Below, one piece after another: positions 84 through 40,665 of a stretch of DNA of 64,000 nt. Within the stretch, counting starts at the first letter, position 1. Each line of letters starts with the position of its first letter. The notes under the pieces were generated by a model. The model did not search any database and was not told the DNA's origin. It saw only the letters and a list, made by a program, of their open reading frames with translations. Position numbers and translations under genes: made by a program. Source of the stretch: Candidatus Micrarchaeota archaeon (lineage in GTDB: Archaea; Micrarchaeota; Micrarchaeia; Micrarchaeales; Micrarchaeaceae); assembly GCA_021810105.1 (NCBI GenBank), contig JAJZJM010000001.1:296850-360849 (forward strand). Reading direction: 5' to 3'.

Positions 84-224
84 TGGGGCCGCCGGGATTT
101 GAACCCGGATTTGCTGGTTTCTTCATAATTTTCTTAATTCCAGATTATCATCATCGCGGTTTTCCGCTCATCTTTTGTTTAAATATCTGGAGCCAGCTGC
201 GCTGCCAGGTTACGCTACAGCCCC
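84..224 (-). tRNA. tRNA-Trp (anticodon CCA) with a ~68-nt intron at the canonical 37/38 position
   Basis: The reverse complement reads GGGGCTG-TA-GCGT-AACCTGGCA-GCGC-A-GCTGG-CTCCAG[intron]A-CCAGC-AAAT-CCGGG-TTCAAAT-CCCGG-CGGCCCC-A. The acceptor (one G-U pair), D, anticodon and T arms all pair. Exons are ~224-187 and ~118-84, and the intron is ~186-119. No CCA is encoded. Confidence 0.85.
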
Positions 225-6155: not shown

Positions 6156-6228
6156 AATCCTCTATTTAATCTGGAGGTATATTAATATTCATTGTTATCA
6201 TAAGGTTTTGTTACACTCTGTGATTTAG

Positions 6229-7383: not shown

Positions 7384-7384
7384 C

Positions 7385-8422
7385 GTGCCTAAGAAAAAAT
7401 CTTTTTGGTATAGCATAACGCACCAGACCAACCTTGACAAGGAAAGCTACCTGAAAATAGTTAAGAGGATATCTATATTCGTAGGGATAGGCTTTGGCGC
7501 AAGCATCTTGGTCTTCTTTTTGATAGCGTGGTTTGGAGGGTTCAGCAATGTTTTGAGCTACATATCAGAAGTGAAACTCGACATATACGCTTTAGCTTTC
7601 GTAGCTGTTGTGGCAAGCCTCCTTCTCAGGTTCATAAAATGGAATTACTACATGAAAGTGCTGAAATTGAAAGTTCCTTTGAAAAAGAGCATGGCGGTTT
7701 ACCTCTCAATGTATTCTATGTCCATAACTCCGGGCAATATAGGGCGGGTTGTTGCGGCTTACACTCTGAACAGGCTTACAAAAATAAAATTTGCAAAAAT
7801 AATACCAATAGTAACTATGGACATTTTTACCGATTTCTTGGGCTTTGGCATACTTGCACTGCTTGCTGCATTATACTTCCATGAATACGTAATCTACATA
7901 CTTGCACTTGACATATTGCTTCTGCTGCCGTTCCTCTTCCTGCTAAACAGCTGGATGTATAGGAAGATAAAGAAGGTAATGGGGCGCAACAAATTCATAA
8001 AGAATTTTACCCCTTATGGAGAGGAGTATTTCCTATCTCAGAACAAGTTAAACTCTCCTAAGACATACCTGATATCTGTCTTTGTCACCCTTCCGGCCGC
8101 TTTCTTCAATTCCCTTACTCTGTATTTTTCGCTTCTTGCGCTAGGCATAGTTGCACCTTTATCAGGGACTGTATTCATATATTCTTCATCTACGATATTC
8201 GGAATGGCTACAGCAATACCAGGAAGCATAGGTGTCACTGACGGATCAATAGTTGCGCTTCTTGGAGGAATACTCAAATTGTCTCCAAGCATCAGCTCTG
8301 CGGTAACGATATTGGGAAGGACTGCAGACCTATGGTTCAGTGTGATTTTGGGGATAGTGTTCTTCTTTATAACACTACGATACTGGACAGAATCTGTACA
8401 GAAGAAAGGAGGTAAAAAATAG
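7385..8422 (+). CDS. Polytopic membrane protein, flippase-like (UPF0104 / LPG-synthase-TM-like)
   Basis: A GTG start lies 1 nt after the GT4 stop. The protein has about 8 hydrophobic helices and basic termini. This family commonly pairs with GT genes, and the assignment rests on architecture only. Confidence 0.5.
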   Translation: MPKKKSFWYSITHQTNLDKESYLKIVKRISIFVGIGFGASILVFFLIAWFGGFSNVLSYISEVKLDIYALAFVAVVASLLLRFIKWNYYMKVLKLKVPLKKSMAVYLSMYSMSITPGNIGRVVAAYTLNRLTKIKFAKIIPIVTMDIFTDFLGFGILALLAALYFHEYVIYILALDILLLLPFLFLLNSWMYRKIKKVMGRNKFIKNFTPYGEEYFLSQNKLNSPKTYLISVFVTLPAAFFNSLTLYFSLLALGIVAPLSGTVFIYSSSTIFGMATAIPGSIGVTDGSIVALLGGILKLSPSISSAVTILGRTADLWFSVILGIVFFFITLRYWTESVQKKGGKK

Positions 8423-8433
8423 GGAATGCCTGT

Positions 8434-8790
8434 TTACATATCCTCTTCTTCTGGCGCGTCCTGCTCGTCAGGGCTTGCGCTCTGGGCAGATCCATCTCCC
8501 TTTTCTACCACCTTTATCTTTCCGAACTTTCCTGTGGAAAGCTGGGGTGTGCCTCTGAACTCGCTAACATAGCCATTAGACACTTCTATTGTGTCTCCCT
8601 GGTTGACCTCGCCTATTGTGTCACCCCATAATGACATTGCTATTGTTCCTGAATCATCTTCTAGAGTTATGTTTGCAACGCTTAGCCTTTTTCCATATTT
8701 TGTAACTACTTCTCTAGGTTCATCCTTCTGTACAACCTTTGCCGTTACGGTCACATTGCTTGCTCCTGCTTTCAGTTCGCTTATTTTCAT
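8434..8790 (-). CDS. ssb: OB-fold single-stranded DNA-binding protein with acidic C-terminal tail
   Basis: The 118-aa pattern VTVTAKVV...ANITLEDDSGTIAMSLWGD...GDTIEVSNGYVSEFRG is typical of a short archaeal SSB OB fold. The tail is DEQDAPEEEDM. Confidence 0.7.
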   Translation of the reverse strand: MKISELKAGASNVTVTAKVVQKDEPREVVTKYGKRLSVANITLEDDSGTIAMSLWGDTIGEVNQGDTIEVSNGYVSEFRGTPQLSTGKFGKIKVVEKGDGSAQSASPDEQDAPEEEDM

Positions 8791-8887
8791 TATATCACTT
8801 TTCTTGTTAACAACTAAAACTAGTGTTTAGAGATATATTGCATTGTAAGAATTTAATAATCTTGCGCAGGAATGATGATTGTTTATT

Positions 8888-9718
8888 ATGGAGAATACAT
8901 CTTCACAGGAACTGCCCAAAGGGGCGCACCCCTCCTTTCTCAATGTGCTCAGAGCAAAGGAGAGAGTAAAGCAAAATATGGCAAATGTCAAGCATAAGAT
9001 AGGCGTTTACAGTGCCAAGGGAGGCGTGGGTAAGACCACTGTGGCAATAAATCTGGCATACGCACTTTCACAGAAAAATCTTCGTGTTGGTCTTTTGGAT
9101 GCAGACATCGACTGCCCTAATGTGACCATGTTTCTCGGAATAGATGAGAAGATAGATCCGCATGCCCCATTAAAACTGCCAGTTAAGGATGGAGTAAAGA
9201 TTGCTTCCACAGCTATGCTTGTAGATGAACTAAAGAAACCGATAATATGGAGAGGCCCTTTGATAACCAAGATGCTAAGTGATTTTTTCGAGCATGCAGA
9301 TTGGGGGGAGCTGGATTACCTTGTGCTTGATCTTAGCCCTGGCACATCTGATGCGCCATTGACAATAATGCAGCTCCTTGACCTTGATGGTTTCGTTATA
9401 GTCACCACCCCGCAGAAGATAGCAGGATTAAACTCGATAAGATCCGGGCTTATGGCAAAGCGCCTAGGAGTTCATATTTTAGGTGTTGTTGAGAACATGT
9501 CATCAGGAGAGCCAAGCCAAAGCACACTCGACGTTGTAGCTGCTCTCGGGACTGAATTCCTTGGCTGTATAAAAAGAGATGATCTTTTCAACAGGTTGAG
9601 CGACTCTGGAACTGTACCCGTGTTGGCAGAGAAGCGTATTAAAGAGGATTTTGACGCTTTTGTAAGCAGGCTTTTAGGGCATGGAGTGAATTCAAATCCG
9701 GAAGCCCGCAAGGCATAG
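8888..9718 (+). CDS. Mrp/NBP35 (ApbC) family Fe-S cluster carrier ATPase
   Basis: It has a deviant Walker A (GVYSAKGGVGKTTVAINLA) and the DADIDCPN and DLSPGTSD motifs. I prefer the ATG at 8888 over the TTG at 8879 used in the ORF track. Confidence 0.8.
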   Translation: MENTSSQELPKGAHPSFLNVLRAKERVKQNMANVKHKIGVYSAKGGVGKTTVAINLAYALSQKNLRVGLLDADIDCPNVTMFLGIDEKIDPHAPLKLPVKDGVKIASTAMLVDELKKPIIWRGPLITKMLSDFFEHADWGELDYLVLDLSPGTSDAPLTIMQLLDLDGFVIVTTPQKIAGLNSIRSGLMAKRLGVHILGVVENMSSGEPSQSTLDVVAALGTEFLGCIKRDDLFNRLSDSGTVPVLAEKRIKEDFDAFVSRLLGHGVNSNPEARKA

Positions 9719-9780
9719 AGAAAGGCAATTTTACCGAGAGACTCTTTGCAGGAATTACGCGGAAAAACGGCAAAAAAAAC

Positions 9781-9790
9781 ATATAAATAT
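9781..9790 (+). promoter_or_regulatory. Putative TATA box upstream of the MoxR-like gene
   Basis: ATATAAATAT is centred ~34 nt upstream of the ATG at 9819 and preceded by an A-rich tract. This would give a very short 5' UTR. Confidence 0.3.
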
Positions 9791-9818
9791 CTGGAAAGGC
9801 GTAAAACTTATAGATTAT

Positions 9819-11261
9819 ATGGTAGAAAAATCAATGCCTTCAGAAAAAAATCCGGATCAGACTGCATTATTAGATTCGGCAAGGAAAAAAATTAGTGATC
9901 TTTCTTCTGTAATAGGAGATAACTTTTTCCTTGGGTTGCCAGATGTAAAATTTAACAGATTACCGCCTGCTGTTGCCATCACAATTATTACAACACTCAC
10001 AGGTGGCAGCCAAATACTATTCGGTAATTATGGTAGAGGAAAAACCTCTCTTGCTGAGGATATTTCCTCTTTGATTTTCGGCGTACCTCTAAGCGTAGTT
10101 CAGCGCGCTGAAGCCCACGGCAGTGACCAAGCTGCGCCAGAAAGCTATATAGCGGTACCTGTAATGAAAGACCTTGATAGAATAAGATGGAAGCCACATG
10201 TGCTTCTGCCAGCACGTATATTTGATGAGTTTAACAGGCTGCCTGAAAGAGCGCAAGTACATTACTTAGACGGAGTAGGTAGAGGATATTATGAATATGG
10301 CGGCATACTTCTGAGAACTGATAAGGGACCGTTCTTCGGCACTGCCAACTGGCCGGATGGTGGTAATAACGAACTCATACCACCCATTAAAGACAGGATA
10401 GACAGCGCGGTTGTTGTAACAGGTGTCAATCCTGCCCAAGAGCTTGGGAAAGGTGCAAGGGAGTTTAATGAAGAGGATATCGATGATAAAGAGATATCTG
10501 ATCAGATGAATAGAGTGCTTAGCGATGTTACAGTAGGACCTGGCGAGTCGGTATCAGAAATGTATGCTTCTCTGAAAGAAAAGATGGAGGAATTATCTTC
10601 AAGATTCAGGGTGGTGCTTAGTAATAACCTAGGTTTGAAAGTTCCAAAACCCAACGAACTTGCTGCTGTACGCAAGGCAATGAAGGAGATGCCAGTATCC
10701 AAGGATGCGTTGGGATTCCGCTATTTTTTGAACTCTGAGTTTACATGCCCAAACTGCGGAGAAAAAACTCCAGAGCATACGAGTTGCTCAGAAACATGCC
10801 ACTACTTCTATGAAATTAGTAGTGGAAGTAAAAGTGCAAGTGATCAAGGCTACGCATTTTCTAACCTTACAACGCACGTATCCAGCAGGGTCACTGATCC
10901 TACTTCAGGAGCATTGCATACATATTCAGCCGCATATGCTTGGCTCATGGGAGATAGCGTAGTGGAGCCCAAGCATATTGCAGCTATTATGCCATATGTG
11001 CTTTGGCATAGGGTGAAATTCACAGAAAGATTTACAGCGGCGAATAGACCTACTACGAATGGCAGAAATCTAGAGCTCTACCTGTCAGAAGTACTGGCAG
11101 CCCAGATCCTGAGAAGATATGAAGATGCAAAGCCAGAGGTTATGAACGCGATTGACGCTTTAACGAAAGGAGATGGAAAGACATTGGAAAGACTTGTTAG
11201 GACTCATGATCATCCATCAATGTGGCATGCTAAAAACCTATATGATGCACTACGCGTATAA
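9819..11261 (+). CDS. MoxR-like AAA+ ATPase with a Cys-rich (zinc-ribbon-like) insertion
   Basis: Walker A is LFGNYGRGKTS. Walker B is in the MoxR style (ARIFDEFNRLPERAQ, compare DEINRA). FFGTANWPDGGNNELIPPIKDRIDS resembles the MoxR ATxNP...LPeAxlDRF segment. A CPNCGEKTPEHTSCSETCH cluster lies at nt 10744-10800. Confidence 0.75.
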   Translation: MVEKSMPSEKNPDQTALLDSARKKISDLSSVIGDNFFLGLPDVKFNRLPPAVAITIITTLTGGSQILFGNYGRGKTSLAEDISSLIFGVPLSVVQRAEAHGSDQAAPESYIAVPVMKDLDRIRWKPHVLLPARIFDEFNRLPERAQVHYLDGVGRGYYEYGGILLRTDKGPFFGTANWPDGGNNELIPPIKDRIDSAVVVTGVNPAQELGKGAREFNEEDIDDKEISDQMNRVLSDVTVGPGESVSEMYASLKEKMEELSSRFRVVLSNNLGLKVPKPNELAAVRKAMKEMPVSKDALGFRYFLNSEFTCPNCGEKTPEHTSCSETCHYFYEISSGSKSASDQGYAFSNLTTHVSSRVTDPTSGALHTYSAAYAWLMGDSVVEPKHIAAIMPYVLWHRVKFTERFTAANRPTTNGRNLELYLSEVLAAQILRRYEDAKPEVMNAIDALTKGDGKTLERLVRTHDHPSMWHAKNLYDALRV

Positions 11262-11323
11262 ATTTGATTTTGTGAAGGCTGAAGACTGCCACCGACCTAA
11301 AAACAATAATAAATAGAGATTAA

Positions 11324-11710
11324 ATGACCCAAATAGAAAAGCATCCAAGCGCCGAGACGCGCGTTGTGCCTGATGAAAGAAGCCGCTCTTTAATGAGACT
11401 TGAGAGAGTGTTGCATGAAGCGGAAGGAGAGACGCCCAGGGCATTGGTGAGGATGCCTGATGATGCAGTTAAGGAGACTGAGAGAGTTAAAGAATTGAGG
11501 GGGGCGTTGGAGAGGTTGAGTGAGGATAATGAGAGGTATACAGTTGCCGTGAGGAGTAGGAATGTTAGTGTGGAGATATTGGAGAGGTTGATTAGGGATG
11601 AGGATGTAGGTGTTAGGAGTGGAGTGGGAAGGGATGAAAATCTAAATCCCAGTAAGAAGAAAAAGGAAAAGCTTCTGTCGAGAGCTTGGAGATATTTTAG
11701 AAGGAAGTAG
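11324..11710 (+). CDS. Short LRV/HEAT-like repeat protein (paralog 1: shared head, 1-2 repeats, basic tail)
   Basis: It shares the head motif LERVLHEAEGETPRALVRMPDDAVKETER and a repeat RNVSVEILERLIRDEDVGVRSGV with the downstream array. It ends in a K/R-rich tail (PSKKKKEKLLSRAWRYFRRK). Confidence 0.75.
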   Translation: MTQIEKHPSAETRVVPDERSRSLMRLERVLHEAEGETPRALVRMPDDAVKETERVKELRGALERLSEDNERYTVAVRSRNVSVEILERLIRDEDVGVRSGVGRDENLNPSKKKKEKLLSRAWRYFRRK

Positions 11711-11721
11711 AGGAGATATTG

Positions 11722-13323
11722 ATGAGTGATAAAAAGACTGTGATTAAGCGTGATGTTCCTCAGCACGCTAATCCAGAACCTTTATCATCTAAATTGTACG
11801 AAGCATGGACAGAGACGCTTAAAATTATGGGGAGTCCTCCACTTTTACTGCCGTGCTTCCAAACAGTAACAAGATCGCATACTTCAGAAATAGACATGAA
11901 AACGAAGCAGATATCTATAGACACAGGCTTCTTTGGAATGCTTCTCGGAAAGGGGCTAAGCGAGAAAGATGCCTTCCAGGCACTATGCATGCATGAGTTG
12001 GGCCACTATAGGTATCACCCTTACGATCTAGCCACCCTTCTGTTAGAATTGAATAGCCTAAAGTACAATGATGAAGGCAAATTCGGCGGACCAAACGCCA
12101 ATTCTATAAGGTTGTTATATGATGATTTCTGCGATAATCTGTGGCTGCTGCGTATGATTAAAGAGCCTAAGATAAACTTATTATACCGCACTATTGACCA
12201 GGATAATAAAATGCCTGCCATAGTGATAATGCGCGCATATCTTCAGTCTGTAAGCGGCGTAGATTTTGGTATTGAAGAGTCCAAACTTAGCGAGGAAATG
12301 CAGAAGAAGGTTGCTGCGCTAAGAAAAATCGATTTTTTCAGTAGGGAAGCGAACCTTGAAAATATTTCCAGATTCGCAAAGATAATGATGGATATCGCTG
12401 CAGAGGAAGAAGAGAATTTAGGAGGATGTGGCGGTATTGATATCAAAGACTTTGCTGAACAAGATGTAGAGCAAGCTATGCGTAAGATAGTAGACCAAGT
12501 GACAAAAGACGATTGGGAAGGTATCAAGAAATGGGTTGATGAGCAGAGCGGGAATATAGGTACGAAATTGAGAACCGATCGTGAAGAGAAAAAAATGAAA
12601 GCTTCTGTCGAATACTACAAGACAAAGGCATCGCTTTACCCGATAAGGATATTGGGAATGCGGTACGTAGTAGAGGGTACTTCAAAAGCAGGCATAGATA
12701 ATTTTAATACAGGAGATAGGATATCCAGCCTAAACCCATATAGAAGCTTTGGGATATTTATACCTGATTCAGGCATAACGAAGAAGAACGTGTATGCACC
12801 GTCCAAAAAATTCGTACCGAGCAAAAAAGTGCCGGATTCGATAATTGTGTTGGACTCTTCGGGCAGCATGCCAAACCCAATAACAGAGAATTCAAATGCC
12901 GTGCTAGGAGCCTTTGCTGTAGCAATGGCATACCTGAAAAACAAGGGCAACGTGGACGTGATAAATTTCTCTTCAGCGGCGAAGACCGTAAAGTATAGAG
13001 ATAGCGAGACAGTTTACAGGACACTGGTGGACTTTTTGGGGGGCGGCACAGACCCTCCTGTAAAGGAACTGACGGACCTGTTAAAGGAAAATAAAAAAGA
13101 TATCACTGTGATAACCGATGGCTTTGCCGGTGCAGATTCCAGCATGGTAAAACAGTTTATGCAGCTGCTAGATTCGGCAGGACAGACACATAGGGTGTCG
13201 TTAGTATATATAGGGAAAAATCCTCCGGAAGAGTTTACAAGTTATCGCAATATCAAGTTCCATGTTGTGACTAGGGAGACCGACATTGCTTCGATAGTAA
13301 TAGGCGATATCGAATGGCAATGA
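11722..13323 (+). CDS. VWA-domain protein with an N-terminal HExxH putative metallopeptidase module (DUF2201-like architecture)
   Basis: CMHELGHYRYHP contains an HExxH motif. The C-terminal VWA domain has a MIDAS motif (IIVLDSSGSMPNP, DxSxS) and ITVITDGFAG. An AGGAG sits ~8 nt upstream of the ATG at 11722. The last 10 nt overlap the first array gene. Confidence 0.75.
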   Translation: MSDKKTVIKRDVPQHANPEPLSSKLYEAWTETLKIMGSPPLLLPCFQTVTRSHTSEIDMKTKQISIDTGFFGMLLGKGLSEKDAFQALCMHELGHYRYHPYDLATLLLELNSLKYNDEGKFGGPNANSIRLLYDDFCDNLWLLRMIKEPKINLLYRTIDQDNKMPAIVIMRAYLQSVSGVDFGIEESKLSEEMQKKVAALRKIDFFSREANLENISRFAKIMMDIAAEEEENLGGCGGIDIKDFAEQDVEQAMRKIVDQVTKDDWEGIKKWVDEQSGNIGTKLRTDREEKKMKASVEYYKTKASLYPIRILGMRYVVEGTSKAGIDNFNTGDRISSLNPYRSFGIFIPDSGITKKNVYAPSKKFVPSKKVPDSIIVLDSSGSMPNPITENSNAVLGAFAVAMAYLKNKGNVDVINFSSAAKTVKYRDSETVYRTLVDFLGGGTDPPVKELTDLLKENKKDITVITDGFAGADSSMVKQFMQLLDSAGQTHRVSLVYIGKNPPEEFTSYRNIKFHVVTRETDIASIVIGDIEWQ

Positions 13324-14018
13324 AAGGGAAGCAAACTAAGCCTGAAATCGCTTTAAAGGGACTTAAGAGAGTGTTGCATGAAGCGGAAGGAGAGATACCC
13401 AGAGCATTGGTGAGGATGCCTGATGATGCAGTTAAGGAGACTGAGAGAATTGAGGAATCAATGAGAAGATTGGAGAGGTTGAGTTGGAGTGAGAAGTTTA
13501 CGATGGCGATAGACCCAAAAACAGACGGATATATGCTTGATGCGCTTAGTAGGGATGAGGATGCGTATGTTAGGAGTGGAGTGGCAGTGAGTGAGAATGT
13601 TAGTGTGGAGATATTGGAGAGGTTGAGTAGGGATGAGGATGCAGGTGTTAGAAGTGAGGTGGCGAGGAGTAGGAATGTTAGTGTGGAGATATTGGAGAGG
13701 TTAAGTAGGGATGAGGATGCGTATGTTAGGAGTTGGGTGGCAATGAATAGGAATATTAGTGTGGAGATATTGGAGAGGTTAAGTAGGGATGAGGATGCAG
13801 GTGTTAGAAGTGAGGTGGCGAGGAATAGGAATGTTAGTGTGGAGATATTGGAGAGGTTAAGTAGGGATGAGGATGCAGGTGTTAGGAGTGGAGTGGCAGG
13901 GAGTAGGAATGTTGGTGTGGAGATATTGGAGAGGTTGAAAAATGATTCTGACGAATATGTAAGGGATATGGCAATTAAGACTTTGGAAAAAATAAACAGA
14001 GGATCTGGAATAATGTGA
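13314..14018 (+). CDS. LRV/HEAT-like repeat protein, paralog 2 (head + 6 x 26-aa units, including the tail cap)
   Basis: The head is MAMKGKQTKPEIALKGLKRVLHEAEGEIPRALVRMPDDAVKETERIEESMRRLERLSW. Repeats follow NVSVEILERLSRDEDAGVRSEVARSR with a 78-nt period. The tail is ILERLKNDSDEYVRDMAIKTLEKINRGSGIM. Confidence 0.8.
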   Translation: MAMKGKQTKPEIALKGLKRVLHEAEGEIPRALVRMPDDAVKETERIEESMRRLERLSWSEKFTMAIDPKTDGYMLDALSRDEDAYVRSGVAVSENVSVEILERLSRDEDAGVRSEVARSRNVSVEILERLSRDEDAYVRSWVAMNRNISVEILERLSRDEDAGVRSEVARNRNVSVEILERLSRDEDAGVRSGVAGSRNVGVEILERLKNDSDEYVRDMAIKTLEKINRGSGIM

Positions 14019-14024
14019 TATCGA

Positions 14025-14729
14025 ATGGCAATGAAAGGGAAGCAAACTAAGCCTGAAATCGCTTTAAAGGGACTTAAGAGAGTGTTGCATGAAGCGGAAG
14101 GAGAGATACCCAGAGCATTGATGAGGATGCCTGATGATGCAGTTAAGGAGACTGAGAGAATTGAGGAATCAATGAGAAGATTGGAGAGGTCGAGTAGGAA
14201 TGAAAAGTTTACGATGGCCATAGACCCAAAAACAGACGGATATATGCTTGATATGCTTAGTAGGGATAAGGATGTAGTTGTTAGGTGTAATGTGGCGGGG
14301 AATAGGAATGTTAGTGTGGAGATATTGAAGAGGTTGAGTAGGGATAAGGATGTAGTTGTTAGGTGTAATGTGGCGAGGAGTGAGAATGTTAGTGTGGAGA
14401 TATTGGAGAAGTTGAGTAGGGATAAGGATGTAGTTGTTAGGTGTAATGTGGCGAGGAGTAGGAATGTTAGTGTGGAGATATTGGAGAAGTTGAGTAGGGA
14501 TAAGGATGTAAGTATCAGGTATAATGTGGCAATGAATTGGAATGTTAGTGTGGAGATATTGGAGAGGTTGAGTAGGGATAAGGATGTAGGTATCAGGTAT
14601 AATGTGGCAATGAATTGGAATGTTAGTGTGGAGATATTGGAGAGGTTGAAAAATGATTCTGACAAATATGTAAGAGATATGGCAATTAAGACTTTGGAAA
14701 AAATACAAGGAGAATCTGGAATAATGTGA
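14025..14729 (+). CDS. LRV/HEAT-like repeat protein, paralog 3 (6 units, SRDKDVVVRCNVA variant)
   Basis: The head is almost nucleotide-identical to paralog 2. The repeats carry K-for-E and VVVRCN / V[SG]IRYN substitutions. A 6-nt spacer (tatcga) follows the previous stop. Confidence 0.8.
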   Translation: MAMKGKQTKPEIALKGLKRVLHEAEGEIPRALMRMPDDAVKETERIEESMRRLERSSRNEKFTMAIDPKTDGYMLDMLSRDKDVVVRCNVAGNRNVSVEILKRLSRDKDVVVRCNVARSENVSVEILEKLSRDKDVVVRCNVARSRNVSVEILEKLSRDKDVSIRYNVAMNWNVSVEILERLSRDKDVGIRYNVAMNWNVSVEILERLKNDSDKYVRDMAIKTLEKIQGESGIM

Positions 14730-14735
14730 TATTGA

Positions 14736-15206
14736 ATGGCAGTGAAAAGGAAGCAAACTAGGCCTGAAATCGCTTTAAGGAGACTTGAGAGAGTGTTGCA
14801 TGAAGCGGAAGGAGAGATGCCCAGAGCATTGGTGAGGATGCCTGATGATGCAGTTAAGGAGACTGAGAGAATTGAGGAATCAATGAGAAGATTGGAGAGG
14901 CTGAGTTGGCGTGAGAAGTTTACGATGGCGATAGACCCAAAAACAGACAGATATATGCTTGATGCGCTTAGTAGGGATGAGGATGCGTATGTTAGGTTTT
15001 ATGTGATAGGGAATGAGAATGTTAGTGTGGAGATGTTGGAGAGGTTGAGTGAGGATAAAAAGGTACTTGTTAGGAGTGGAGTGGTGGGGAGTAGGAATGT
15101 TAGTGTGGAGATATTGGAGAGGTTGAAAAATGATTCTGACAAATATGTAAGAGATATGGCAATTAAGACTTTGGAAAAAATAAACAGAGGATCTGGAATA
15201 ATGTGA
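14736..15206 (+). CDS. LRV/HEAT-like repeat protein, paralog 4 (3 units)
   Basis: It has the MAVKRKQTRPEIALRRLERV head and the same tail. It is exactly 78 aa (3 x 26) shorter than paralogs 2 and 3. Confidence 0.8.
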   Translation: MAVKRKQTRPEIALRRLERVLHEAEGEMPRALVRMPDDAVKETERIEESMRRLERLSWREKFTMAIDPKTDRYMLDALSRDEDAYVRFYVIGNENVSVEMLERLSEDKKVLVRSGVVGSRNVSVEILERLKNDSDKYVRDMAIKTLEKINRGSGIM

Positions 15207-15212
15207 TATTGA

Positions 15213-15683
15213 ATGGCAGTGAAAAGGAAGCAAACTAGGTCTGAAATCGCTTTAAGGAGACTTGAGAGAGTGTTGCATGAAGCGGAAGGAGAGATACCCA
15301 GAGCATTGGTGAGGATGCCTGATGATGCAGTTAAGGAGACTGAGAGAATTAAGAAATTGCGGATAAAATCGGAGAGGTTGAGTATGGATGATGAGCTTGA
15401 GATGGCTCTGGACCCGAAAACAGATAAGGATATCCTTGATGTGCTTAGTAGGAATAAGGATGTGAGTATTAGGTGTGGGGTGGCAAGGAGTGAGAATGTT
15501 AGTGCGGAGACATTGGAGAGGTTGAGTAGGGATAAGAATGCGTATGTTAGGAGTTGGGTGGCAAGGAATAGGAATGTTAGTGTGGAGATATTGGAGAGGT
15601 TGAAAAATGATTCTGACAAATATGTAAGAGATATGGCAATTAAGACTTTGGAAAAAATAAACAGAGGATCTGGAATAATGTGA
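15213..15683 (+). CDS. LRV/HEAT-like repeat protein, paralog 5 (3 units, divergent linker)
   Basis: Head and tail match the family. The linker differs (IKKLRIKSERLSMDDELEMALDPKTDKDILDVL). Confidence 0.8.
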   Translation: MAVKRKQTRSEIALRRLERVLHEAEGEIPRALVRMPDDAVKETERIKKLRIKSERLSMDDELEMALDPKTDKDILDVLSRNKDVSIRCGVARSENVSAETLERLSRDKNAYVRSWVARNRNVSVEILERLKNDSDKYVRDMAIKTLEKINRGSGIM

Positions 15684-15689
15684 TATCGA

Positions 15690-16472
15690 ATGGCAGTGAA
15701 AAGGAAGCAAACTAGGCCTGAAATCGCTTTAAGGAGACTTGAGAGAGTGTTGCATGAAGCGGAAGGAGAGATGCCCAGAGCATTGGTGAGGATGCCTGAT
15801 GATGCAGTTAAGGAGACTGAGAGAATTGAGGAATCAATGAGAAGATTGGAGAGGCTGAGTTGGCGTGAGAAGTTTACGATGGCGAGAGACCCAAAAACAG
15901 ACGGATATATGCTTGATATGCTTAGTAGGGATAAGGATGTAGTTGTTAGGTGTAATGTGGCGAGGAATAGGAATGTTAGTGTGGAGATATTGGAGAGGTT
16001 GAGTAGAGATAAGGATGCGGGTGTTAGGTATAATGTGGCGGGGAGTAGGAATGTTAGTGTGGAGATATTGGAGAGGTTGAGTAGGGATGAGGATGCGAGT
16101 GTTAGGTATAATGTGGCAATGAATTGGAATGTTAGTGTGGAGATATTGGAGAGGTTGAGTAGAGATAAGGATGCGGGTGTTAGGTATAATGTGGCGGGGA
16201 GTAGGAATGTTAGTGTGGAGATATTGGAGAGGTTGAGTAGGGATAAGGATGTACTTGTTAGGAGTGGAGTGGCAGGGAATGAGAATGTTAGTTTGGAGAT
16301 ATTGGAGAGGTTGAGTAGAGATAAGGATGCGGGTGTTAGGTATAATGTGGCGGGGAGTAGGAATGCTAGTGTGGAGATATTGGAGAGGTTGAAAAATGAT
16401 TCTGACAAATATGTAAGAGATATGGCAATTAAGACTTTGGAAAAAATAAACAGAGGATCTGAAATAATGTGA
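15690..16472 (+). CDS. LRV/HEAT-like repeat protein, paralog 6 (7 units)
   Basis: At 260 aa it equals 234 plus one 26-aa unit. Its repeats are SRDKDAGVRYNVAGSR, SRDEDASVRYNVAMNW and similar variants. Confidence 0.8.
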   Translation: MAVKRKQTRPEIALRRLERVLHEAEGEMPRALVRMPDDAVKETERIEESMRRLERLSWREKFTMARDPKTDGYMLDMLSRDKDVVVRCNVARNRNVSVEILERLSRDKDAGVRYNVAGSRNVSVEILERLSRDEDASVRYNVAMNWNVSVEILERLSRDKDAGVRYNVAGSRNVSVEILERLSRDKDVLVRSGVAGNENVSLEILERLSRDKDAGVRYNVAGSRNASVEILERLKNDSDKYVRDMAIKTLEKINRGSEIM

Positions 16473-16478
16473 TATCGA

Positions 16479-17177
16479 ATGGCAGTGAAAAGGAAGCAAA
16501 ATAGGCCTGAAATCGCTTTAAGGAGACTTGAGAGAGTGTTGCATGAAGCGGAAGGAGAGATACCCAGAGCATTGGTGAGGATGCCTGATGATGCAGTTAA
16601 GGAGACTGAGAGAATTGAGGAATCAATGAGAAGATTGGAGAGGTTGAGTTGGAGTGAGAAGTTTACGATGGCGATAGACCCAAAAACAGACGGATATATG
16701 CTTGATATTCTTAGTAGGGATGAGGATGTAGGTGTTAGAAGTGAGGTGGCGAGGAATAGGAATGTTAGTGTGGAGATATTGGAGAGGTTAAGTAGGGATG
16801 AGGATGCAGGTGTTAGGAGTGGGGTGGTGGGAAATAGGAATATTAGTGTGGAGATATTGGAGAGGTTAAGTAGGGATGAGGATGCAGGTGTTAGGAGTGG
16901 GGTGGTAGGGAATGAGAATGTTAGTGTGGAGATGTTGGAGAGGTTGAGTAGAGATAAGGATGCGTATGTTAGGAGAGAGGTTGCATGGAATAGGAATGTT
17001 AGTGTGGAGATATTGGAGAGGTTGAGTAGGGATGAGGATGCGGGTGTTAGGAGAGAGGTGGCAAGGAGTGAGAATGTTAGTGTAGAAATATTGGAGAGGT
17101 TGAAAAATGATTCTGACAAATATGTAAGAAATATTGCAATTAAGACCCTGAAGAAGTTAAAAAGATCTAATTGCTGA
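16479..17177 (+). CDS. LRV/HEAT-like repeat protein, paralog 7 (6 units, divergent last residues)
   Basis: It shares the family head. Its repeats are SRDEDAGVRSGVVGN[RE] and VRREVA[WR]. The tail ends in ...IAIKTLKKLKRSNC rather than ...EKINRGSGIM, which marks the end of the array. Confidence 0.8.
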   Translation: MAVKRKQNRPEIALRRLERVLHEAEGEIPRALVRMPDDAVKETERIEESMRRLERLSWSEKFTMAIDPKTDGYMLDILSRDEDVGVRSEVARNRNVSVEILERLSRDEDAGVRSGVVGNRNISVEILERLSRDEDAGVRSGVVGNENVSVEMLERLSRDKDAYVRREVAWNRNVSVEILERLSRDEDAGVRREVARSENVSVEILERLKNDSDKYVRNIAIKTLKKLKRSNC

Positions 17178-17424
17178 TGCAATCAGAAGGCTTTGGATAT
17201 GATGTTACATGTGATTACACCTTGCGAAGAATGTTAGGATAACACCACTGCAACGCATTCTACACGAGGAAGTATTCAATGGTGTGGGAGATAGTATAGG
17301 TTTAAATATTTTTATGCTGATATTATGACGGCTATGTGCATTATCGATTACCTATATTTTGGCTCGTTATAAAATAGGACTTTGTATATGGCGTACTTAT
17401 ATTTGGAATAAATGGTGAATTATC

Positions 17425-19083
17425 ATGGCAGAAAATCAATTAGGCGGACAGCAGGTATTATTGCTACCGGAAGGATCTTCAAGAATATTGGGGAGAGATG
17501 CACAGCGCACCAACATTGCAGTGGCAGTTGCCGTGGCAAACGCTGTCAAAACAACACTTGGCCCTAAGGGAATGGACAAGATGCTTGTCAGCGAGCTTGG
17601 AGACATAATAATAACAAATGACGGCGCAACAATCCTGGATGAGATGAATGTTGAGCACCCAGTTGCAAAGATAATGGTAGATATAGCGAAAACGCAGGAT
17701 AAGGAAGTGGGAGACGGAACTACCAGTGTAGTGATAATGGCTGGAGAGCTGCTAAAAGGGGCTGGAGAGCTGATAGAGCAGGGAATACATCCTACAACTA
17801 TAATACGCGGCTACAAGATGGCTGCTGAAAATGCCACACAAATACTTGAAAATGTTGCAAGGAAAGTAGATATGAACGATGATGCAATACTACAAAAAAT
17901 TGCACAGGTATCTATGGGGTCCAAGAACGTAGGTGACGACAATACAAAGGCCCAGCTTGGAAAAATAGTAATAAAGGCCGTAAGGCAGGTAATAGATAAG
18001 GATGCTTCAGGAAAATCCGTAATAGACCATGACTTCATAAAAGTAGAGAAGAAGGCTGGAGGAGCAATAAGCGATACAAACCTCATAAACGGGGTTCTTG
18101 TAGACAAAGAGATAGCGCATCCAGGTATGCCTAGAAGCATATCAAATGCAAAGATAGCCCTTCTTGATGTTGCTCTAGAGATAGAGAAGACAGAAACGGA
18201 TGCAAAGATAGAAATAACATCTCCTGAACAGATGCAGGCATTCCTGCAGCAGGAAGAGCGCATGCTTAAGGACATGGTAAAAAAGATAGAGGCAAGCAAG
18301 GCAAACACTCTCTTTACCCAGAAAGGCATAGATGATGTGGCGCAGCACTATCTTTCAAAGGCTGGCATACTTGCAGTCAGAAGGGTGAAGAAGAGCGATA
18401 TGGAAAAGCTGTCAAGAGCAACTGGCGCAAAGATAGTAACAAGCCTTGACGACCTTAGAGAGCCAGACCTTGGAAAAGCAGGGCTAGTCGAAGAGAGGAA
18501 AATAAGCGGGGAGCGCATGGTATTCGTAGAGGGATGCAAGGACCCGAAAAGCGTTACCATATTCGTTAGGGGCGGCAACCAGCAAGTGGTTGACGAAGTA
18601 GAGCGTTCCATAACTGACGTGATAGGTGCTATATCCAGTGTAATGATAGATGGTAAATACGTGATAGGAGGAGGCAGCGTAGAAATAGACATAGCAAATG
18701 GCCTCAGGGCATACTCCAGCAACGTAGGAGGACGTGAACAGCTTGCAATACAGAAGTTTGCTGATGCTGTTGAAATAGTGCCAAGGACTCTTGCTGAGAG
18801 CGCTGGAATGGATGCCATAGACACGCTTGTTCAGCTAAGAAGCATGCACAAAGGAAAGAGCGGAGGCGTAGAAGGCGTTGACATAAGCAAGAACAGCGTT
18901 AGCGACATGCTGAAGAGGGGAGTATTCGAGCCACTCAAGGTAAAGCAGCAGGCAATATACAGCGCAAGCGAAGCCGCAGAAATAATATTGAGGATAGATG
19001 ATATAATAAGCTCGAAGGGTAGATCCCCTTCAGGTGGAGGGCCTGGAGGAATGGGAGGAGGCCCTGGAGGAATGGAAGACTGA
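17425..19083 (+). CDS. ths: Thermosome subunit (group II chaperonin)
   Basis: Diagnostic segments include [24 protein letters not shown] and VGDGTTSVV. The C-terminal GGM-type tail is [16 protein letters not shown]. Confidence 0.95.
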
Positions 19084-19159
19084 TTACCGCATAAAATATA
19101 GAGCTTGTTCTGATTGTGCCGCGCCTGAGAGGGACGAGTCAGCAGCAACATATTAAAAT

Positions 19160-19747
19160 ATGAATGCTGGCTATATTGGTAATATGCTGATATTTATAGT
19201 AGGTTCTCCGGCTTCTGGCAAGACATCAATAGTGAGCAGATGCAAAGATTACGGAGGATTGCAGAGTATAAAAGTAGGAGACATTATGCTTAAAGATGCG
19301 CGTAGATCCGGATACTCTGGAGATAGAGACGGGCTTAGGAAAATGCAATTACAGGAGATGCTGGAACTTCAGAGGCGCGCTCTGAGAAAGCTGTCAAGGC
19401 TGCGTGGAGATTACCTGATAGATACGCACCTATCTGTTGAGGCGGATGGGCGCTTCGTATCCGGACTTCCGGAATCCTCTTTGGGAGACCTTAAAAAGGC
19501 ATCCTGCATAATATACGTAGACGCACCGACAGAGGAGATAATGTCAAGAAGAGTATTAGACAGGTCTAGAGTGCGTGAAAAGGAGTCCCGGTTGATGATA
19601 GAGACGCAGAGGGGTGTCAATCTTTCGGCATTATCTTATATATCTTGGCACCTTGGCATACCGTTTTACTTGATTGAAAACAGGAATGGAATGCTGGATG
19701 CTTCTGTAAAAAAGGTAAAAGCGATAATTGATGAATTTGTAGGGTAA
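19160..19747 (+). CDS. adkA: Adenylate kinase, archaeal type
   Basis: It has a P-loop (IVGSPASGKTS) and is 195 aa long. It sits in the conserved archaeal context adk-DUF106-L34e-cmk-L14e. Confidence 0.75.
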   Translation: MNAGYIGNMLIFIVGSPASGKTSIVSRCKDYGGLQSIKVGDIMLKDARRSGYSGDRDGLRKMQLQEMLELQRRALRKLSRLRGDYLIDTHLSVEADGRFVSGLPESSLGDLKKASCIIYVDAPTEEIMSRRVLDRSRVREKESRLMIETQRGVNLSALSYISWHLGIPFYLIENRNGMLDASVKKVKAIIDEFVG

Positions 19748-19752
19748 TTTAT

Positions 19753-20274
19753 ATGGCAGCAGTACCTGTTATGAGCATAGAATCCGCAATAGAGATATTC
19801 GTTGCTGGAGTAATATATACGCTGGCAGCGGCAACGGTGCAGAGAAAACTTGTAGATCCTAAGAAAACCAGGGCCATACAGGATAAGATAAAGGTAAAAT
19901 CTGACGAGATAAAAAGATTAATGAAAGAAAATGCGCCTAAGGATCAGATATCCCAAAAACAGTCGGAGATGATGCCGCTGATGAAGGAGAGCATGAGCTC
20001 GAGCATGAGAGCCACCATAGTGCTGATTCCGTCTTTCCTGGTTGTGTACTACCTTATAATCCCTTTTCTTTTTGGAGGACTTGGCACTGCCACATTTAAG
20101 CTAAACATATTGTCTCTGGTGTTCAATCTAGATTATAGAGGAGTATTCTTCGCTACAGTTTTCGTTTTGGGAATGATAACATCAATAAGCATACTCATAT
20201 ATGACAGGAGGAGAGCAAAGAGGGACGCTGCCAAGGAGGAGGCGCAGCTAGACGCTAAAGGTGCGAATAGCTGA
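19753..20274 (+). CDS. DUF106 / EMC3-TMCO1-like membrane protein (archaeal YidC/Oxa1-like insertase family)
   Basis: The topology is TM, then a charged coiled region (KKTRAIQDKIKVKSDEIKRLMKE...), then TM helices. It occupies the conserved position after adk. Confidence 0.65.
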   Translation: MAAVPVMSIESAIEIFVAGVIYTLAAATVQRKLVDPKKTRAIQDKIKVKSDEIKRLMKENAPKDQISQKQSEMMPLMKESMSSSMRATIVLIPSFLVVYYLIIPFLFGGLGTATFKLNILSLVFNLDYRGVFFATVFVLGMITSISILIYDRRRAKRDAAKEEAQLDAKGANS

Positions 20275-20344
20275 TTACAGCAAGGTATATAAATTTAAAT
20301 AAGCAATCAAATCAAGTAAATTCATTGCTGCTTTTGGTGACAGA

Positions 20345-20668
20345 ATGCCCAAACCTATGCATAGATCAAGAAGCTTAAGGAGGCTCAACAGAGTTACACG
20401 CAGCGGAGCAAATGTAATCCATTACAAGCGTCGCGCCAATTCCCTACCGCACTGTGCGATATGCGGAAATGAACTGAATGGAATCTCCCTTTCCAAAAAC
20501 GGAGGAAAGAGCAGGAGAACGAACAGCAGGATATTCGGAGGTGTTCTGTGCTCTGGATGCTCTGCGGAAGTCGTAAAGCTTGGCAGTAGAGTAGAGAATG
20601 GTGAAATGAGGCTTAATGATATAGGCATAAAGCAGAGAATGTATGTGCTGCAACTTGTAGCACATTGA
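20345..20668 (+). CDS. rpl34e: 50S ribosomal protein L34e
   Basis: The N-terminus is HRSRSLRRLNRVTRSGANVIHYKRR, followed by a CAICGNEL...CSGC zinc-binding pattern. Confidence 0.85.
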   Translation: MPKPMHRSRSLRRLNRVTRSGANVIHYKRRANSLPHCAICGNELNGISLSKNGGKSRRTNSRIFGGVLCSGCSAEVVKLGSRVENGEMRLNDIGIKQRMYVLQLVAH

Positions 20669-20701
20669 GATTTTCGTTTATTTCTGCATAAAGGAGTTTG
20701 A

Positions 20702-21265
20702 TTGGAGGCAATAGTCATATGCGGCATGCCTGGATGCGGCAAGACCACTGTTGCGAAGCTCCTATCTAAAAAACTCGGATTGCCAGAATTTAACGGCGGC
20801 GACATACTGAAGCTTATCGCAAAAGAAAAAGGATATTCGGCAGAGGGAGTAGGCTGGTGGGACACTCCTGAAGGAATTAAGTTCCTGAAGGAGCGCGAGA
20901 AGAACCCTGAATTCGATTTGATGGCTGATGAAAAAATAAAGGAAATTATTAATAACGGCTCGGTCATATTGACTAGTTACACAGCACCGTGGCTGTTTGC
21001 CAATGCTTTGAAGATATGGCTTGATGCAAGCCCTGACGTACGCGCAAAAAGAATGGCAGGGCGGGACCACATAAGCCTTGCAGAAGCCAAAAGGTGCATA
21101 AAATTGCGCGATGATGAAAACAAGCGTTTATATAAAAAGATGTATAATATAAAGTTTGGGGAAGATAAATCACCATTCAATATGGTGATTGACGTGAATT
21201 CCATCACCACAGAAGAGATTGCGGATTTGATAATGAAAAAGATAAAGGCGATTGAATGGCATTGA
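20702..21265 (+). CDS. cmk: Cytidylate kinase, archaeal type
   Basis: It has a P-loop (VICGMPGCGKTTVAKLLS), is 187 aa long and sits in the conserved context. The start is TTG. Confidence 0.75.
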   Translation: MEAIVICGMPGCGKTTVAKLLSKKLGLPEFNGGDILKLIAKEKGYSAEGVGWWDTPEGIKFLKEREKNPEFDLMADEKIKEIINNGSVILTSYTAPWLFANALKIWLDASPDVRAKRMAGRDHISLAEAKRCIKLRDDENKRLYKKMYNIKFGEDKSPFNMVIDVNSITTEEIADLIMKKIKAIEWH

Positions 21266-21495
21266 TAGAAATAGGCAGGGTATGCATAAAGAAGTATGGA
21301 AGAGACGCGGGAAGCAGAGCGGTTATAACTTCGATTGCGAAGGACGGATTTGTAACAATACTGACTACGGACAGAAGTAAGAAGGAAAGGCGCTGCAATA
21401 CAAAGCATCTCGAAATATTAAACGAGATGGTAGACTTAAAGAACAAGGAGCAGGTTAACCGCGCTCTTGGAATTGCCAAGTCTGCTGCCGCCTAA
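21256..21495 (+). CDS. rpl14e: 50S ribosomal protein L14e (KOW domain)
   Basis: IEIGRVCIKKYGRDAGSRAVI is a KOW-like N-terminus. The protein is 79 aa and follows cmk as in other archaea. Confidence 0.8.
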   Translation: MALIEIGRVCIKKYGRDAGSRAVITSIAKDGFVTILTTDRSKKERRCNTKHLEILNEMVDLKNKEQVNRALGIAKSAAA

Positions 21496-22700
21496 TCATC
21501 TTCTTTTAGTAGCAGCTCTCCTGCGGCTTTCAGCACCTTCTCTTTGCTCTCTTCGGAGGAGAGCAGCGTGAATAATTCGGATGGTTTGAAGGAACCTCTG
21601 ACTTTGGATTTACTGAGCTTCTCTGAAAGCAGATGCATGCCCAACTCTTTGACAGGCATGCTGTCGACTTTTCCCTCCCTTAGCTCCTCCATTGCGGATT
21701 CGCTCCCTTCGATAGAGAGAGACTGAGTATCAAAGGAGATTATTGCCTCTTTGGAATATTTTGCAGCTATAGACTGAAGCCCCATGTCGGCTTTCTCAAA
21801 GCCCCTTGATGCTGTACCCGATATCTTTATCTTTAGTATGGGTTTAACCCCGCCTTTGGATACGGCATCAGATATCGTGCTCTTGCATTCCTCTATTATT
21901 TTCTCCGCGTCGGTCTGATTTGCGGATATCTCCTTGATTATAAAAGGCCGTGAATTTATTTTAACGAACTCGTATTTGTAGGATTCTGTATCGAAGATAA
22001 TGAAGCCTTTGTTGCCCTGCTCTTCGGATTTGAGCTGTGTAAGGACAGTGCTGCCTGGAATGAGGAGAGGCTTCCCATGCACTTTTGCCTCAACTCTATT
22101 GTGCATGTGGCCGCATGCATAAAGATCAAATCCTTCCGGAAGGTCCGAGTATTTTATGAATGCGTTGCTGAACGGGAGGAGCTCGTATATAGACTGGTGG
22201 AACATAAATATATTGAACGCTCCAGGAACTGGTTTTGGGTTAAGGCTCTCCAATTCCGGCTTTACCATCTCTTCAGAGACTCCACCAAGCCCGAATATAC
22301 AGACTCTTTCATCTCCTTTGGAGAGTGTGGTGGTGGCTTCGCTCGTATCTACAAGCAGCCCAGCCAAAGAGAGAAGCTGGACAGCATTCTCCTTGCCTTT
22401 TGCGATTCTTTCATGAGTACCAGGTATGGCAACTATGGGCTTTTTTGTATATATCTTGTTCTGGCCGGAATATTCTACAACCTCGGCACCGAAGTTTTTT
22501 GAAAGAATTTCCCTGAAAAGCTTCATAGCCTGCGAAATTACGTCTGGTTTTGGGTACCTCTTGTCGAATATATCTCCGGGTATTATTATTGCGTCTGCTA
22601 ATTCTGATGCTTTTTGCAACGCCTCTTTTGCCTGGGAAAGTGCATCCTCAGAAAACCTTTCATATCCAAGATGCATATCAGATACGATTGCAATTTTCAT
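21492..22700 (-). CDS. mre11: DNA double-strand break repair nuclease Mre11
   Basis: The calcineurin-like phosphoesterase motifs appear in order: IVSDMHLG, PGDIFD, IPGTHE, and GHMHN. Confidence 0.85.
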   Translation of the reverse strand: MKIAIVSDMHLGYERFSEDALSQAKEALQKASELADAIIIPGDIFDKRYPKPDVISQAMKLFREILSKNFGAEVVEYSGQNKIYTKKPIVAIPGTHERIAKGKENAVQLLSLAGLLVDTSEATTTLSKGDERVCIFGLGGVSEEMVKPELESLNPKPVPGAFNIFMFHQSIYELLPFSNAFIKYSDLPEGFDLYACGHMHNRVEAKVHGKPLLIPGSTVLTQLKSEEQGNKGFIIFDTESYKYEFVKINSRPFIIKEISANQTDAEKIIEECKSTISDAVSKGGVKPILKIKISGTASRGFEKADMGLQSIAAKYSKEAIISFDTQSLSIEGSESAMEELREGKVDSMPVKELGMHLLSEKLSKSKVRGSFKPSELFTLLSSEESKEKVLKAAGELLLKEDD

Positions 22701-40623: not shown

Positions 40624-40665
40624 ATATTTGACTGTAGAACTATTTGCAGCCAATCAGTGAAACAT

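Follow-up and report, generated by a model that had tools for sequence, protein, structure and literature searches.

The 64,000-nucleotide (nt) stretch of Candidatus Micrarchaeota DNA analysed here (contig JAJZJM010000001.1; hereafter the window, within which all position numbers are coordinates) contains a tandem array of six genes, g1 to g6, that encode paralogous proteins of the LRV repeat family. The window is metagenomic in origin and matches the JGI contig 3300033990 Ga0373184_0000168 without a difference. The array forms the 3′ part of an operon in which the genes are ordered AAA+ ATPase, a truncated seventh paralog (open reading frame (ORF) 7), a VWA/HExxH protein and then g1 to g6. 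Protein lengths are given in amino acids (aa), and E denotes the expectation value of a match. The genes of the array are as follows:

g1, 13314..14018, + strand: LRV paralog, 234 aa, 6 units (PF01816 E 2.2e-21)
g2, 14025..14729, + strand: LRV paralog, 234 aa, 6 units (PF01816 E 2.7e-17)
g3, 14736..15206, + strand: LRV paralog, 156 aa, 3 units (PF01816 E 9e-6)
g4, 15213..15683, + strand: LRV paralog, 156 aa, 3 units, second half of the head divergent (PF01816 E 3.4e-8)
g5, 15690..16472, + strand: LRV paralog, 260 aa, 7 units, the protein whose structure was modelled (PF01816 E 9.8e-26)
g6, 16479..17177, + strand: LRV paralog, 232 aa, 6 units, divergent tail KKLKRSNC (PF01816 E 4e-24)

All six genes are co-directional and neighbouring genes are separated by 6 nt, in the arrangement TGA-TAT[CT]GA-ATG. 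Tandem Repeats Finder identified 78-nt arrays in every one of them (83-93% matches), together with a gene-level period of 477 nt. The encoded proteins start with a 68-aa head and a degenerate first unit, continue with 1 to 5 internal units and a cap unit (NVSVEILERLKNDSDKYVRDMAIKTL), and end in a short tail, giving totals of 3, 6 or 7 units of 26 aa each when the degenerate first unit and the cap are included. The tail is 10 aa long in the array proteins and, in g6, 8 aa and divergent. These data agree with an initial annotation of the sequence, which had reported gene sizes of 234, 234, 156, 156, 260 and 232 aa with a 26-aa (78-nt) periodicity, near-identical heads carrying the variants MAMKGK/MAVKRK, EGEIP/EGEMP and SWSEKF/SWREKF/SRNEKF, and a repeat framework, N-V-S-V-E-I-L-E-R-L-S-R-D-x-D-x-x-V-R-x-x-V-A. 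The sizes, periodicity and head variants are present where they had been placed, and the framework holds across the units in the alignment. The label ‘cassette-like' that the same annotation gave to the paralogs is misleading, as the six copies are complete, translationally coupled ORFs of one operon and not silent cassettes. The heads of g1 and g2 are identical over 104 nt starting 8 nt upstream of the ATG, the first mismatch being head nucleotide 97. Within the units, codons 1-13 constitute a 39-nt block that is near-invariant, synonymous sites included, in 19 of 19 internal units, and the regularity of the array goes far past what chance would give. A search with the 68-aa head returned 7 matches in 1.84 billion representative proteins, one of the seven being an unrelated repeat protein without an aligned stretch; judged by these matches the head is confined to the window lineage and a sister lineage. 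No signal peptide or hydrophobic segment was seen in the LRV proteins on inspection by eye, no predictor being used, which suggests that they are probably cytoplasmic and that the N-x-S sequons in the units are probably incidental.

The six array proteins score 26-89 bits against the Pfam LRV family (PF01816), for which the curated cut-off is 21.6, and carry a HEAT-like C-cap. A profile of the family (alignment A1) matched the LRV protein of A. vinelandii (PDB 1LRV; E 5.7e-21) and, less strongly, artificial alphaRep proteins (E 1e-9 to 1e-5); AlkC-type HEAT-like DNA-binding proteins were weak matches (E 0.08). The profile was required to find 1LRV, a direct phmmer search of PDB sequences with g5 giving no match. 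The AlphaFold2 (AF2) model of g5 has a mean predicted local distance difference test (pLDDT) score of 87.7, exceeding 90 throughout the repeats, and in it each 26-aa unit is made up of two helices, A spanning positions 4-10 and B spanning 16-23. The first ~36 residues are of low confidence, which in the model fits a flexible basic tag, and are followed by N-cap helices at residues 37-66. Foldseek returned 1LRV as the top structural match to g5 (E 2.9e-6, template modelling (TM) scores 0.59/0.65), followed by alphaRep proteins (TM up to 0.67) and then by PP2A-A HEAT scaffolds, sequence identity to 1LRV and alphaRep being 27-30%. The N-terminal 4Fe-4S domain of the A. vinelandii protein, which Pfam does not demand of family members, was not detected, there being no Pfam LRV_FeS match and no cysteine cluster in the six heads. 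The proposal in the initial annotation that the proteins are repeat-scaffold binders is therefore supported in part: the constant α-solenoid is evident in the g5 model, but PF01816, 1LRV and the Foldseek matches show that the fold is LRV/HEAT-like and not of the ankyrin or leucine-rich repeat (LRR) type. Scanning metagenomes with g5 added no other copy of this locus, the only matches being five distant LRV proteins encoded on short contigs.

Variation between the units is focused on a few positions, as had been claimed. In the aligned 78-nt units, positions 14, 16, 17, 20, 21 and 24-26 have a Shannon entropy of 0.9-1.9 bits, all others one of at most 0.8 bits. Positions 16, 17, 20, 21 and 24 follow the spacing i, i+1, i+4, i+5, i+8 and thus constitute a stripe along helix B, to which the loop following this helix is added. 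On a helical wheel the variable residues occupy angles of 0-140 degrees, and the conserved V18, R19, V22 and A23 lie at 200-340 degrees. In the profile alignment the five stripe positions are equivalent to positions 18, 19, 22, 23 and 26 of alphaRep. The randomised positions of alphaRep were picked since they are variable in the natural family, and in complexes they form the concave, target-binding face (PMC3754942). The helical wheel and the alphaRep alignment thus place the variable sites on one face, a single exposed helix-B stripe plus loop, consistent with the earlier prediction; this surface mapping draws on the DSSP string, on the periodicity of the helices and on the alphaRep alignment rather than on computed solvent accessibility. 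Near-identical repeats (for example PAEALALLAQDKDADVRYYVAQNTS) that are variable only at xxVRxxVAx were also observed in unrelated LRV proteins from other metagenomes (L058, L059, L060 and L061), indicating that the pattern of variation is partly a property of the LRV family.

Substitutions at the variable positions are overwhelmingly non-synonymous, again as had been anticipated. For the codon set defined a priori (16, 17, 20, 21 and 24) the non-synonymous rate (dN) is 0.69 against a unit-wide synonymous rate (dS) of 0.20, a ratio of 3.5; dN/dS is 0.43 for the other 21 codons and 0.84 for the whole unit. The eight codons chosen by their variability give a dN/dS of ~2.0 against their own dS and 2.6 against the unit-wide dS (bootstrap 95% interval for the dN/dS of this set, 1.3-6.4), and the 18 framework codons a value of 0.27. 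Synonymous divergence is itself uneven: in the units between 13596 and 17072, codons 1-13 have a dS of 0.11 compared with 0.29 for codons 14-26, a ~2.6-fold excess in the variable half, which suggests either that conversion tracts homogenise the first 39 nt or that the second half contains older or faster-evolving alleles. The 19 internal units display 17 distinct surface signatures, and most variable codons differ solely at codon positions one and two. The heads have a dN/dS of ~1.3, a value that derives from very few differences.

Mosaicism among the genes is consistent with the view, put forward in the initial annotation, that recombination or gene conversion reshuffles the units. In a GENECONV-like permutation test on the alignable parts, shared tracts were significantly long for g1-g6, g3-g5 and g2-g5 (each p ≤ 0.002) and for g3-g4 (p = 0 of 5000), several pairs with g4 being likewise significant, and 162 of 276 pairs of informative sites failed the four-gamete test. 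The longest exact repeats between genes are 198 nt (g3-g5) and 176 nt (g1-g6). As repeats of this length reside in a metagenome contig, gene order and the pairing of heads with bodies are possibly misassembled. Indeed, five other assemblies display 0 mismatches to the window across the flanks (~9 kb upstream and ~10 kb downstream) but contain permuted or collapsed arrays, which use exactly the window's units in different head/body pairings. In the NCBI metagenome-assembled genome (MAG) GCA_027333545.1 contigs break inside the array. In three assemblies with k141_ contig names, probably made by MEGAHIT with a final k of 141, the AAA gene is followed by an ORF7::g4 chimera, one collapsed gene and then the thermosome gene; in the samples with this ‘deletion' contig the VWA gene is located on a separate 3-kb contig bearing the reciprocal chimera. 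Reciprocal chimeras that fuse ORF7 to an array gene and occur on separate contigs from the same samples (L001/L005/L012, with a 165-aa gene; L056:115-474 and L057:720-1079) are the signature of a mis-resolved repeat junction. The ORF7/g4 chimeras join within the shared segment RALVRMPDDAVKETER, where exact identity extends over 45 nt only; as this is less than the final k of 141, simple k-mer collapse explains the junction incompletely. The identical flanks and the reuse of identical units nevertheless favour assembler ambiguity over population heterogeneity, and the differences between assemblies in the array are probably artefacts. By contrast, the six distinct bodies recur in all fuller independent assemblies, showing that the paralogs themselves are real.

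Upstream of the array the operon encodes three further proteins:

MoxR-like AAA+ ATPase, 9819..11261, + strand: first gene of the operon, 480 aa, provisionally assigned from Walker A/B, the arginine motif and profile matches
ORF7, 11324..11710, + strand: truncated seventh paralog, 128 aa, with an N-terminus of its own, the shared head core RVLHEAEGETPRALVRMPDDAVKETER, a single LRV unit and a basic, unrelated tail
VWA protein, 11719..13323, + strand: 534 aa, with an N-terminal HExxH zinc-metallopeptidase-like domain, identified by motif conservation and phmmer homologs

The ATPase is divergent, its scores for Pfam AAA_5 and AAA_lid_2 lying slightly below the cut-offs; AAA_5/AAA_lid_2 matches are found in its homologs, and AAA_3 in the distant ones, whose source name is ‘MoxR-like ATPase'. 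Alignment A2 shows no variation in Walker A (G-x-G-K-T; G72, G74, K75 and T76), Walker B (D136-E137) or D192-R193. The ATPase profile matched PDB 2R44 (E 1.6e-4), deposited as ‘Uncharacterized protein' and of the MoxR type, and BchI (1G8P; E 1.8e-3). With 8 sequences as input, AF2 gave an ATPase model of pLDDT 48.6, which was too poor for a fold search. At residues ~306-324 (window 10734-10790) the protein contains a cysteine-rich insert, CPNCGEKTPEHTSCSETCH (C-PNC-GEKTPEHTSC-SETC-H), whose sequence suggests that it may be a zinc ribbon; the insert is present only here and in a 62%-identical sister protein, other DPANN members of the family lacking it. The VWA protein has only a weak match to Pfam VWA_2, and 23 DPANN loci encode homologs that phmmer detected at E 1e-17 to 1e-40. 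In an alignment of these proteins H92-E93-x-x-H96 is retained in 23 of 24 sequences, and the metal ion-dependent adhesion site (MIDAS) residues D379-x-S381-x-S383, T444 and D467 are present in 24 of 24, so that the N-terminal domain is a putative zincin-like peptidase. The 3′ end of the VWA gene overlaps the start of g1 by 10 nt. The ORF7 unit (11553-11635), 85.5% identical to a unit, is the sole unit-like sequence outside the array, and in a sister species the ORF7 slot is occupied by a full-length LRV protein. NCBIfam and PADLOC scans of the AAA, VWA and LRV proteins produced noise only, and neither VMAP-C nor iSTAND turned up in general Pfam and PADLOC scans of the LRV proteins and ORF7. 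A thermosome gene is located 247 nt downstream of the array.

The AAA+ family is rare, with 10 matches in a search of 5.8 billion proteins and no match in a profile scan of viral contigs. A scan of GTDB species genomes yielded 40 loci, nearly all from Woese-, Pace-, Nano- and Aenigmarchaeota (individual loci are designated L followed by a number). The VWA/HExxH gene lies downstream of the AAA gene in 23 of the 42 loci examined, many of the 42 being truncated. The genes recur in the order AAA, X, VWA, X′, the paralogous X and X′ reaching five copies in L045. In that locus the five paralogs, of 150-160 aa, are arranged around the VWA gene, and neither a reverse transcriptase (RT) nor a template repeat (TR) was detected. 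At their N-termini the X proteins have a tag in common, M[PV]N[PK]RFLxxAERWxNxxxP, which is strongly conserved; the bodies behind it are diverse, and most have no Pfam match. Clear classical LRRs are found in the X slot of L044 (1641-2771) and L028 (5442-6203), and sub-threshold LRRs only in that of L015 (9399-9830), all three proteins carrying the same kind of tag. In the sister lineage, whose AAA protein is 62% identical, LRV proteins are encoded directly after the AAA gene and vary at the same unit positions as those of the array.

In 12 of the loci the 3′ ends of two to three X genes match a nearby non-coding repeat, as pairs of TR and variable repeat (VR), with 85-100% of the mismatches at adenines of the repeat. 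Homologs of RT were detected in 10 related loci by phmmer with the RT of a DPANN diversity-generating retroelement (DGR). The adenine-specific TR/VR pairs together with the RT genes show that these are genuine multi-target DGR cassettes in which AAA and VWA genes are embedded. Cassettes with one template and 2-3 targets are present in L006, L016, L017, L020, L024, L025, L031, L034, L039, L042 and L049; in L006, for example, the TR is at 13039-13124 and the VRs are at 10150-10235 and 12719-12804. The target genes flank the VWA/HExxH gene and come after the MoxR-like AAA+ gene, and all targets start with the conserved tag. DPANN DGRs with orphan target proteins have been described previously (PMC4372165), as have MoxR/vWA systems with DGR-diversified sensors in bacteria (PMC7159879, PMC10907252). 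Radical SAM/SPASM genes were also observed in or beside some AAA-VWA cassettes (L026:9750-10793; L006:13177-15252), which hints at peptide modification tied to the AAA-VWA system, and L006 additionally contains a Fic gene.

The hallmarks of a DGR were sought in the window itself. A phmmer search of window ORFs of at least 80 aa with the DPANN DGR RT gave no match even at E ≤ 10, and a self-comparison scan of positions 5001-22000, the sole stretch scanned, revealed no TR/VR pair. The variable unit columns show no adenine bias, their consensus bases (G 20, A 10, T 5 and C 2) being proportional to composition, and the single unit of ORF7 is not an A-rich template. The array was therefore rejected as a DGR target.

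The scaffold of the array proteins is constant and its exposed stripe varied, and the proteins occupy the slot that in most related operons is filled by DGR-hypermutated or LRR proteins; they thus look like a hard-wired panel of binders. With 5-8 amino-acid-changing codons per repeat on the exposed helix-B face and adjoining loop, the array would encode related ligand-binding surfaces of different length. The reading that we favour, at a probability of roughly 0.55, is that the array is a germline-encoded set of LRV/HEAT-like binders, hard-wired into the variable slot of a DPANN AAA/VWA operon. Recent duplication and gene conversion would keep the framework (helix A and most synonymous sites) uniform, and diversity would be encoded in the germline through duplication of genes and repeats, unequal crossover or gene conversion, and selection at the surface codons. 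Each binder may be held on the VWA (MIDAS)/AAA+ machine by its constant head and tail, its variable face could engage different targets, and the ATPase and peptidase might then remodel or process the binder or its cargo.

Several observations weigh against a binder panel. The dN/dS values are approximate, being computed over units that are copies and not independent of one another, and the eight codons were selected post hoc. Variability at these positions is general in LRV/HEAT-like repeats and could signify relaxed constraint on the surface rather than selection. Given exact repeats of up to 198 nt, the head/body mosaics could in part be assembly chimeras. A hidden Markov model (HMM) of the DPANN N-terminal tag gave no match to the window heads, so that head and tag are at most candidate homologs, and the role ascribed to the ATPase and VWA-peptidase toward the LRV proteins is purely inferential.

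It is possible, if doubtful, that the array encodes ordinary tandem-duplicated HEAT-like scaffold or adaptor proteins, whose least-constrained surface residues drift neutrally and serve no repertoire function. The near-neutral dN/dS of the whole unit (0.84), the value of ~1.3 for the sparse differences in the heads, and variability at the same positions both in unrelated LRV proteins and in the natural family behind alphaRep are all consistent with such drift. They contrast with the 3.5-fold excess of dN over dS in the a priori surface set, the 17 surface signatures in 19 internal units and the 2.6-fold higher dS of the variable (0.29) over the constant (0.11) half of the unit; moreover, the presence of actively hypermutated proteins in the slot of homologous operons argues that diversity is the selected trait. 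We consider it rather unlikely that much of the apparent mosaicism, the gene order and perhaps the copy or repeat number are products of short-read metagenome assembly across near-identical repeats, the same bodies possibly having another arrangement in the genome. Exact repeats of 104-198 nt exceed common k-mer sizes, and the permuted or collapsed arrays between mismatch-free flanks in five assemblies, the MAG contigs that end inside the array and the paired reciprocal ORF7/g4 chimeras in the same samples are what such an artefact would leave. Nevertheless, the 45-nt identity of ORF7 and g4 is below the final k of 141, the six bodies recur in independent assemblies, and the variation pattern within units is independent of gene order.

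Programmed variation, through silent cassettes copied to an expression site or shufflon-like rapid recombination in a clonal population, is very unlikely. Different arrangements do occur between identical flanks, and the invariant 39-nt block and near-identical heads would be good substrates for recombination; however, all six copies are intact ORFs with ATG and stop, 6 nt apart in one operon, no recombinase or invertase was identified among the family-assigned genes of the immediate neighbourhood, and assembly explains the heterogeneity more simply. Diversification of the array by a DGR or another hypermutation system, as in the DPANN relatives, is highly improbable even though homologous operons are DGR cassettes and the differences in most variable codons are confined to the first two positions, because the window lacks the RT, TR/VR, adenine-bias and A-rich template signals sought above and identical unit variants are reused in all assemblies. 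That the proteins are modular readers of nucleic acid of the TALE, PUF or PPR kind, in which the variable residues specify the base, is barely credible. Such a function would fit near-identical repeats with two or three specificity-like residue pairs and the weak profile matches to AlkC-type proteins, but the net charge of the proteins is -7 to +6, a typical unit (NVSVEILERLSRDEDAGVRSEVARSR) has six acidic and five basic residues by hand count, there are only 3-7 repeats, and the best structural analogues are protein binders.

The composition of the array is unusual. Its coding strand is extremely depleted in C, which constitutes 2.4% of the internal units and 6.7% of the array (13314-17177) compared with 19.6% of the window, and among two-fold NNY codons 22 end in C and 268 in T, neighbouring genes having 38-64% C. 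This depletion accounts for a GC skew of 0.55-0.63 and is probably also behind the long antisense ORFs (727, 464 and 221 aa), which are taken to be spurious. The LRV genes of the sister species (L055:2531-3451 and L010:2450-3109) are partly C-depleted, with 11.5-13.7% against 21.3% in their AAA gene. Elsewhere the window encodes gyrase, Lhr and a tRNA-splicing endonuclease. Its ribosomal protein L3 most resembles proteins labelled Marsarchaeota (69%) and Micrarchaeota/Micrarchaeia (53-57%), and the host is therefore probably a Micrarchaeota-like DPANN archaeon. A 141-nt tRNA at 84-224 (- strand), called by Rfam and missed by ARAGORN, probably contains an intron, and a 99-nt tRNA-Asn(att) at 40189-40287 (- strand) was called by ARAGORN without Rfam support. 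No Pfam match at E ≤ 1e-5 was obtained for the ORFs at 40657-45090 (1477 aa), 26886-28874 (662 aa), 38133-39839 (568 aa) and 45115-46110 (331 aa).

The array proteins share family and fold with the LRV protein of A. vinelandii (1LRV, PF01816), including the alternating short helices and the D-x-D-x-x-V-R-x-x-V-A motif. In contrast to that protein they lack the N-terminal Fe-S domain, have a lineage-specific 68-aa head and 26-aa units, and are encoded by a tandem six-gene array in an AAA/VWA operon. Concerted evolution that keeps repeats uniform while a few surface residues remain diverse is also a feature of fungal NLR repeats with hypervariable sites and of TALE repeats with their repeat-variable diresidues. 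These proteins differ from the array in fold and partners, there being no NTPase fused to the array repeats and no indication of nucleic-acid binding. With alphaRep binders, which are randomised at positions 18, 19, 22, 23, 26 and 30 (PMC3754942), the array has in common the variation of equivalent positions and a variable number of repeats between constant caps; it is, however, natural and not designed, its repeats are 26 rather than 31 aa long, and positions 14, 25 and 26 vary additionally.

At the level of the operon, homologous AAA+ and VWA-peptidase genes are shared with the DPANN DGR cassettes (Paul et al. 2015, PMC4372165; PMC10907252), in which, as in the array, paralogous variable proteins with a constant N-terminus and a diversified binding region flank the VWA gene. 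Besides lacking the DGR components and adenine-specific pattern, the window locus differs from these cassettes in that its variable domain is an LRV solenoid and in that it has ~25 repeat units over six genes, compared with one VR per gene. The MoxR-vWA ‘ternary' conflict systems (Kaur et al. 2020, PMC7159879) and DGR antigen sensors (Dore et al. 2024, PMC10907252) likewise combine a MoxR-like ATPase with a vWA protein and a variable, ligand-binding third component, with a peptidase present, and the N-terminal modules common to neighbouring genes recall the logic of their effector-associated domains (EADs). Here, by contrast, the peptidase takes the form of an N-terminal HExxH domain carried by the vWA protein, the systems reside in DPANN archaea instead of multicellular bacteria, and no effector domain was identified.

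While the repeat family and its hypervariable stripe are already known, the tandem array inside a DGR-type AAA/VWA cassette without a DGR appears to be a novel variation on them. A more speculative extension, which we regard as possible but some way from likely, is that a germline repertoire has replaced retroelement hypermutation and been plugged into the same MoxR-ATPase/VWA-peptidase machine, and that the array may recombine fast, different arrangements coexisting despite SNP-free flanks of ~19 kb. If this were true, the array would be a naturally occurring alphaRep library, with DGR targets, LRR and LRV proteins as interchangeable sensor modules of one archaeal recognition system. DGR-diversified proteins are abundant in DPANN archaea, and the locus suggests that a dedicated MoxR-like ATPase and VWA-metallopeptidase work with them, the variable component having the appearance of an exchangeable, tagged binder, whether DGR target, LRR protein or LRV protein. 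The array is a natural counterpart to engineered alphaRep libraries and a clean case of concerted evolution combined with focused diversification. As the LRV version is small, regular and confidently modelled, it offers a tractable entry to the ligands of these proteins and to the role of the ATPase and peptidase.

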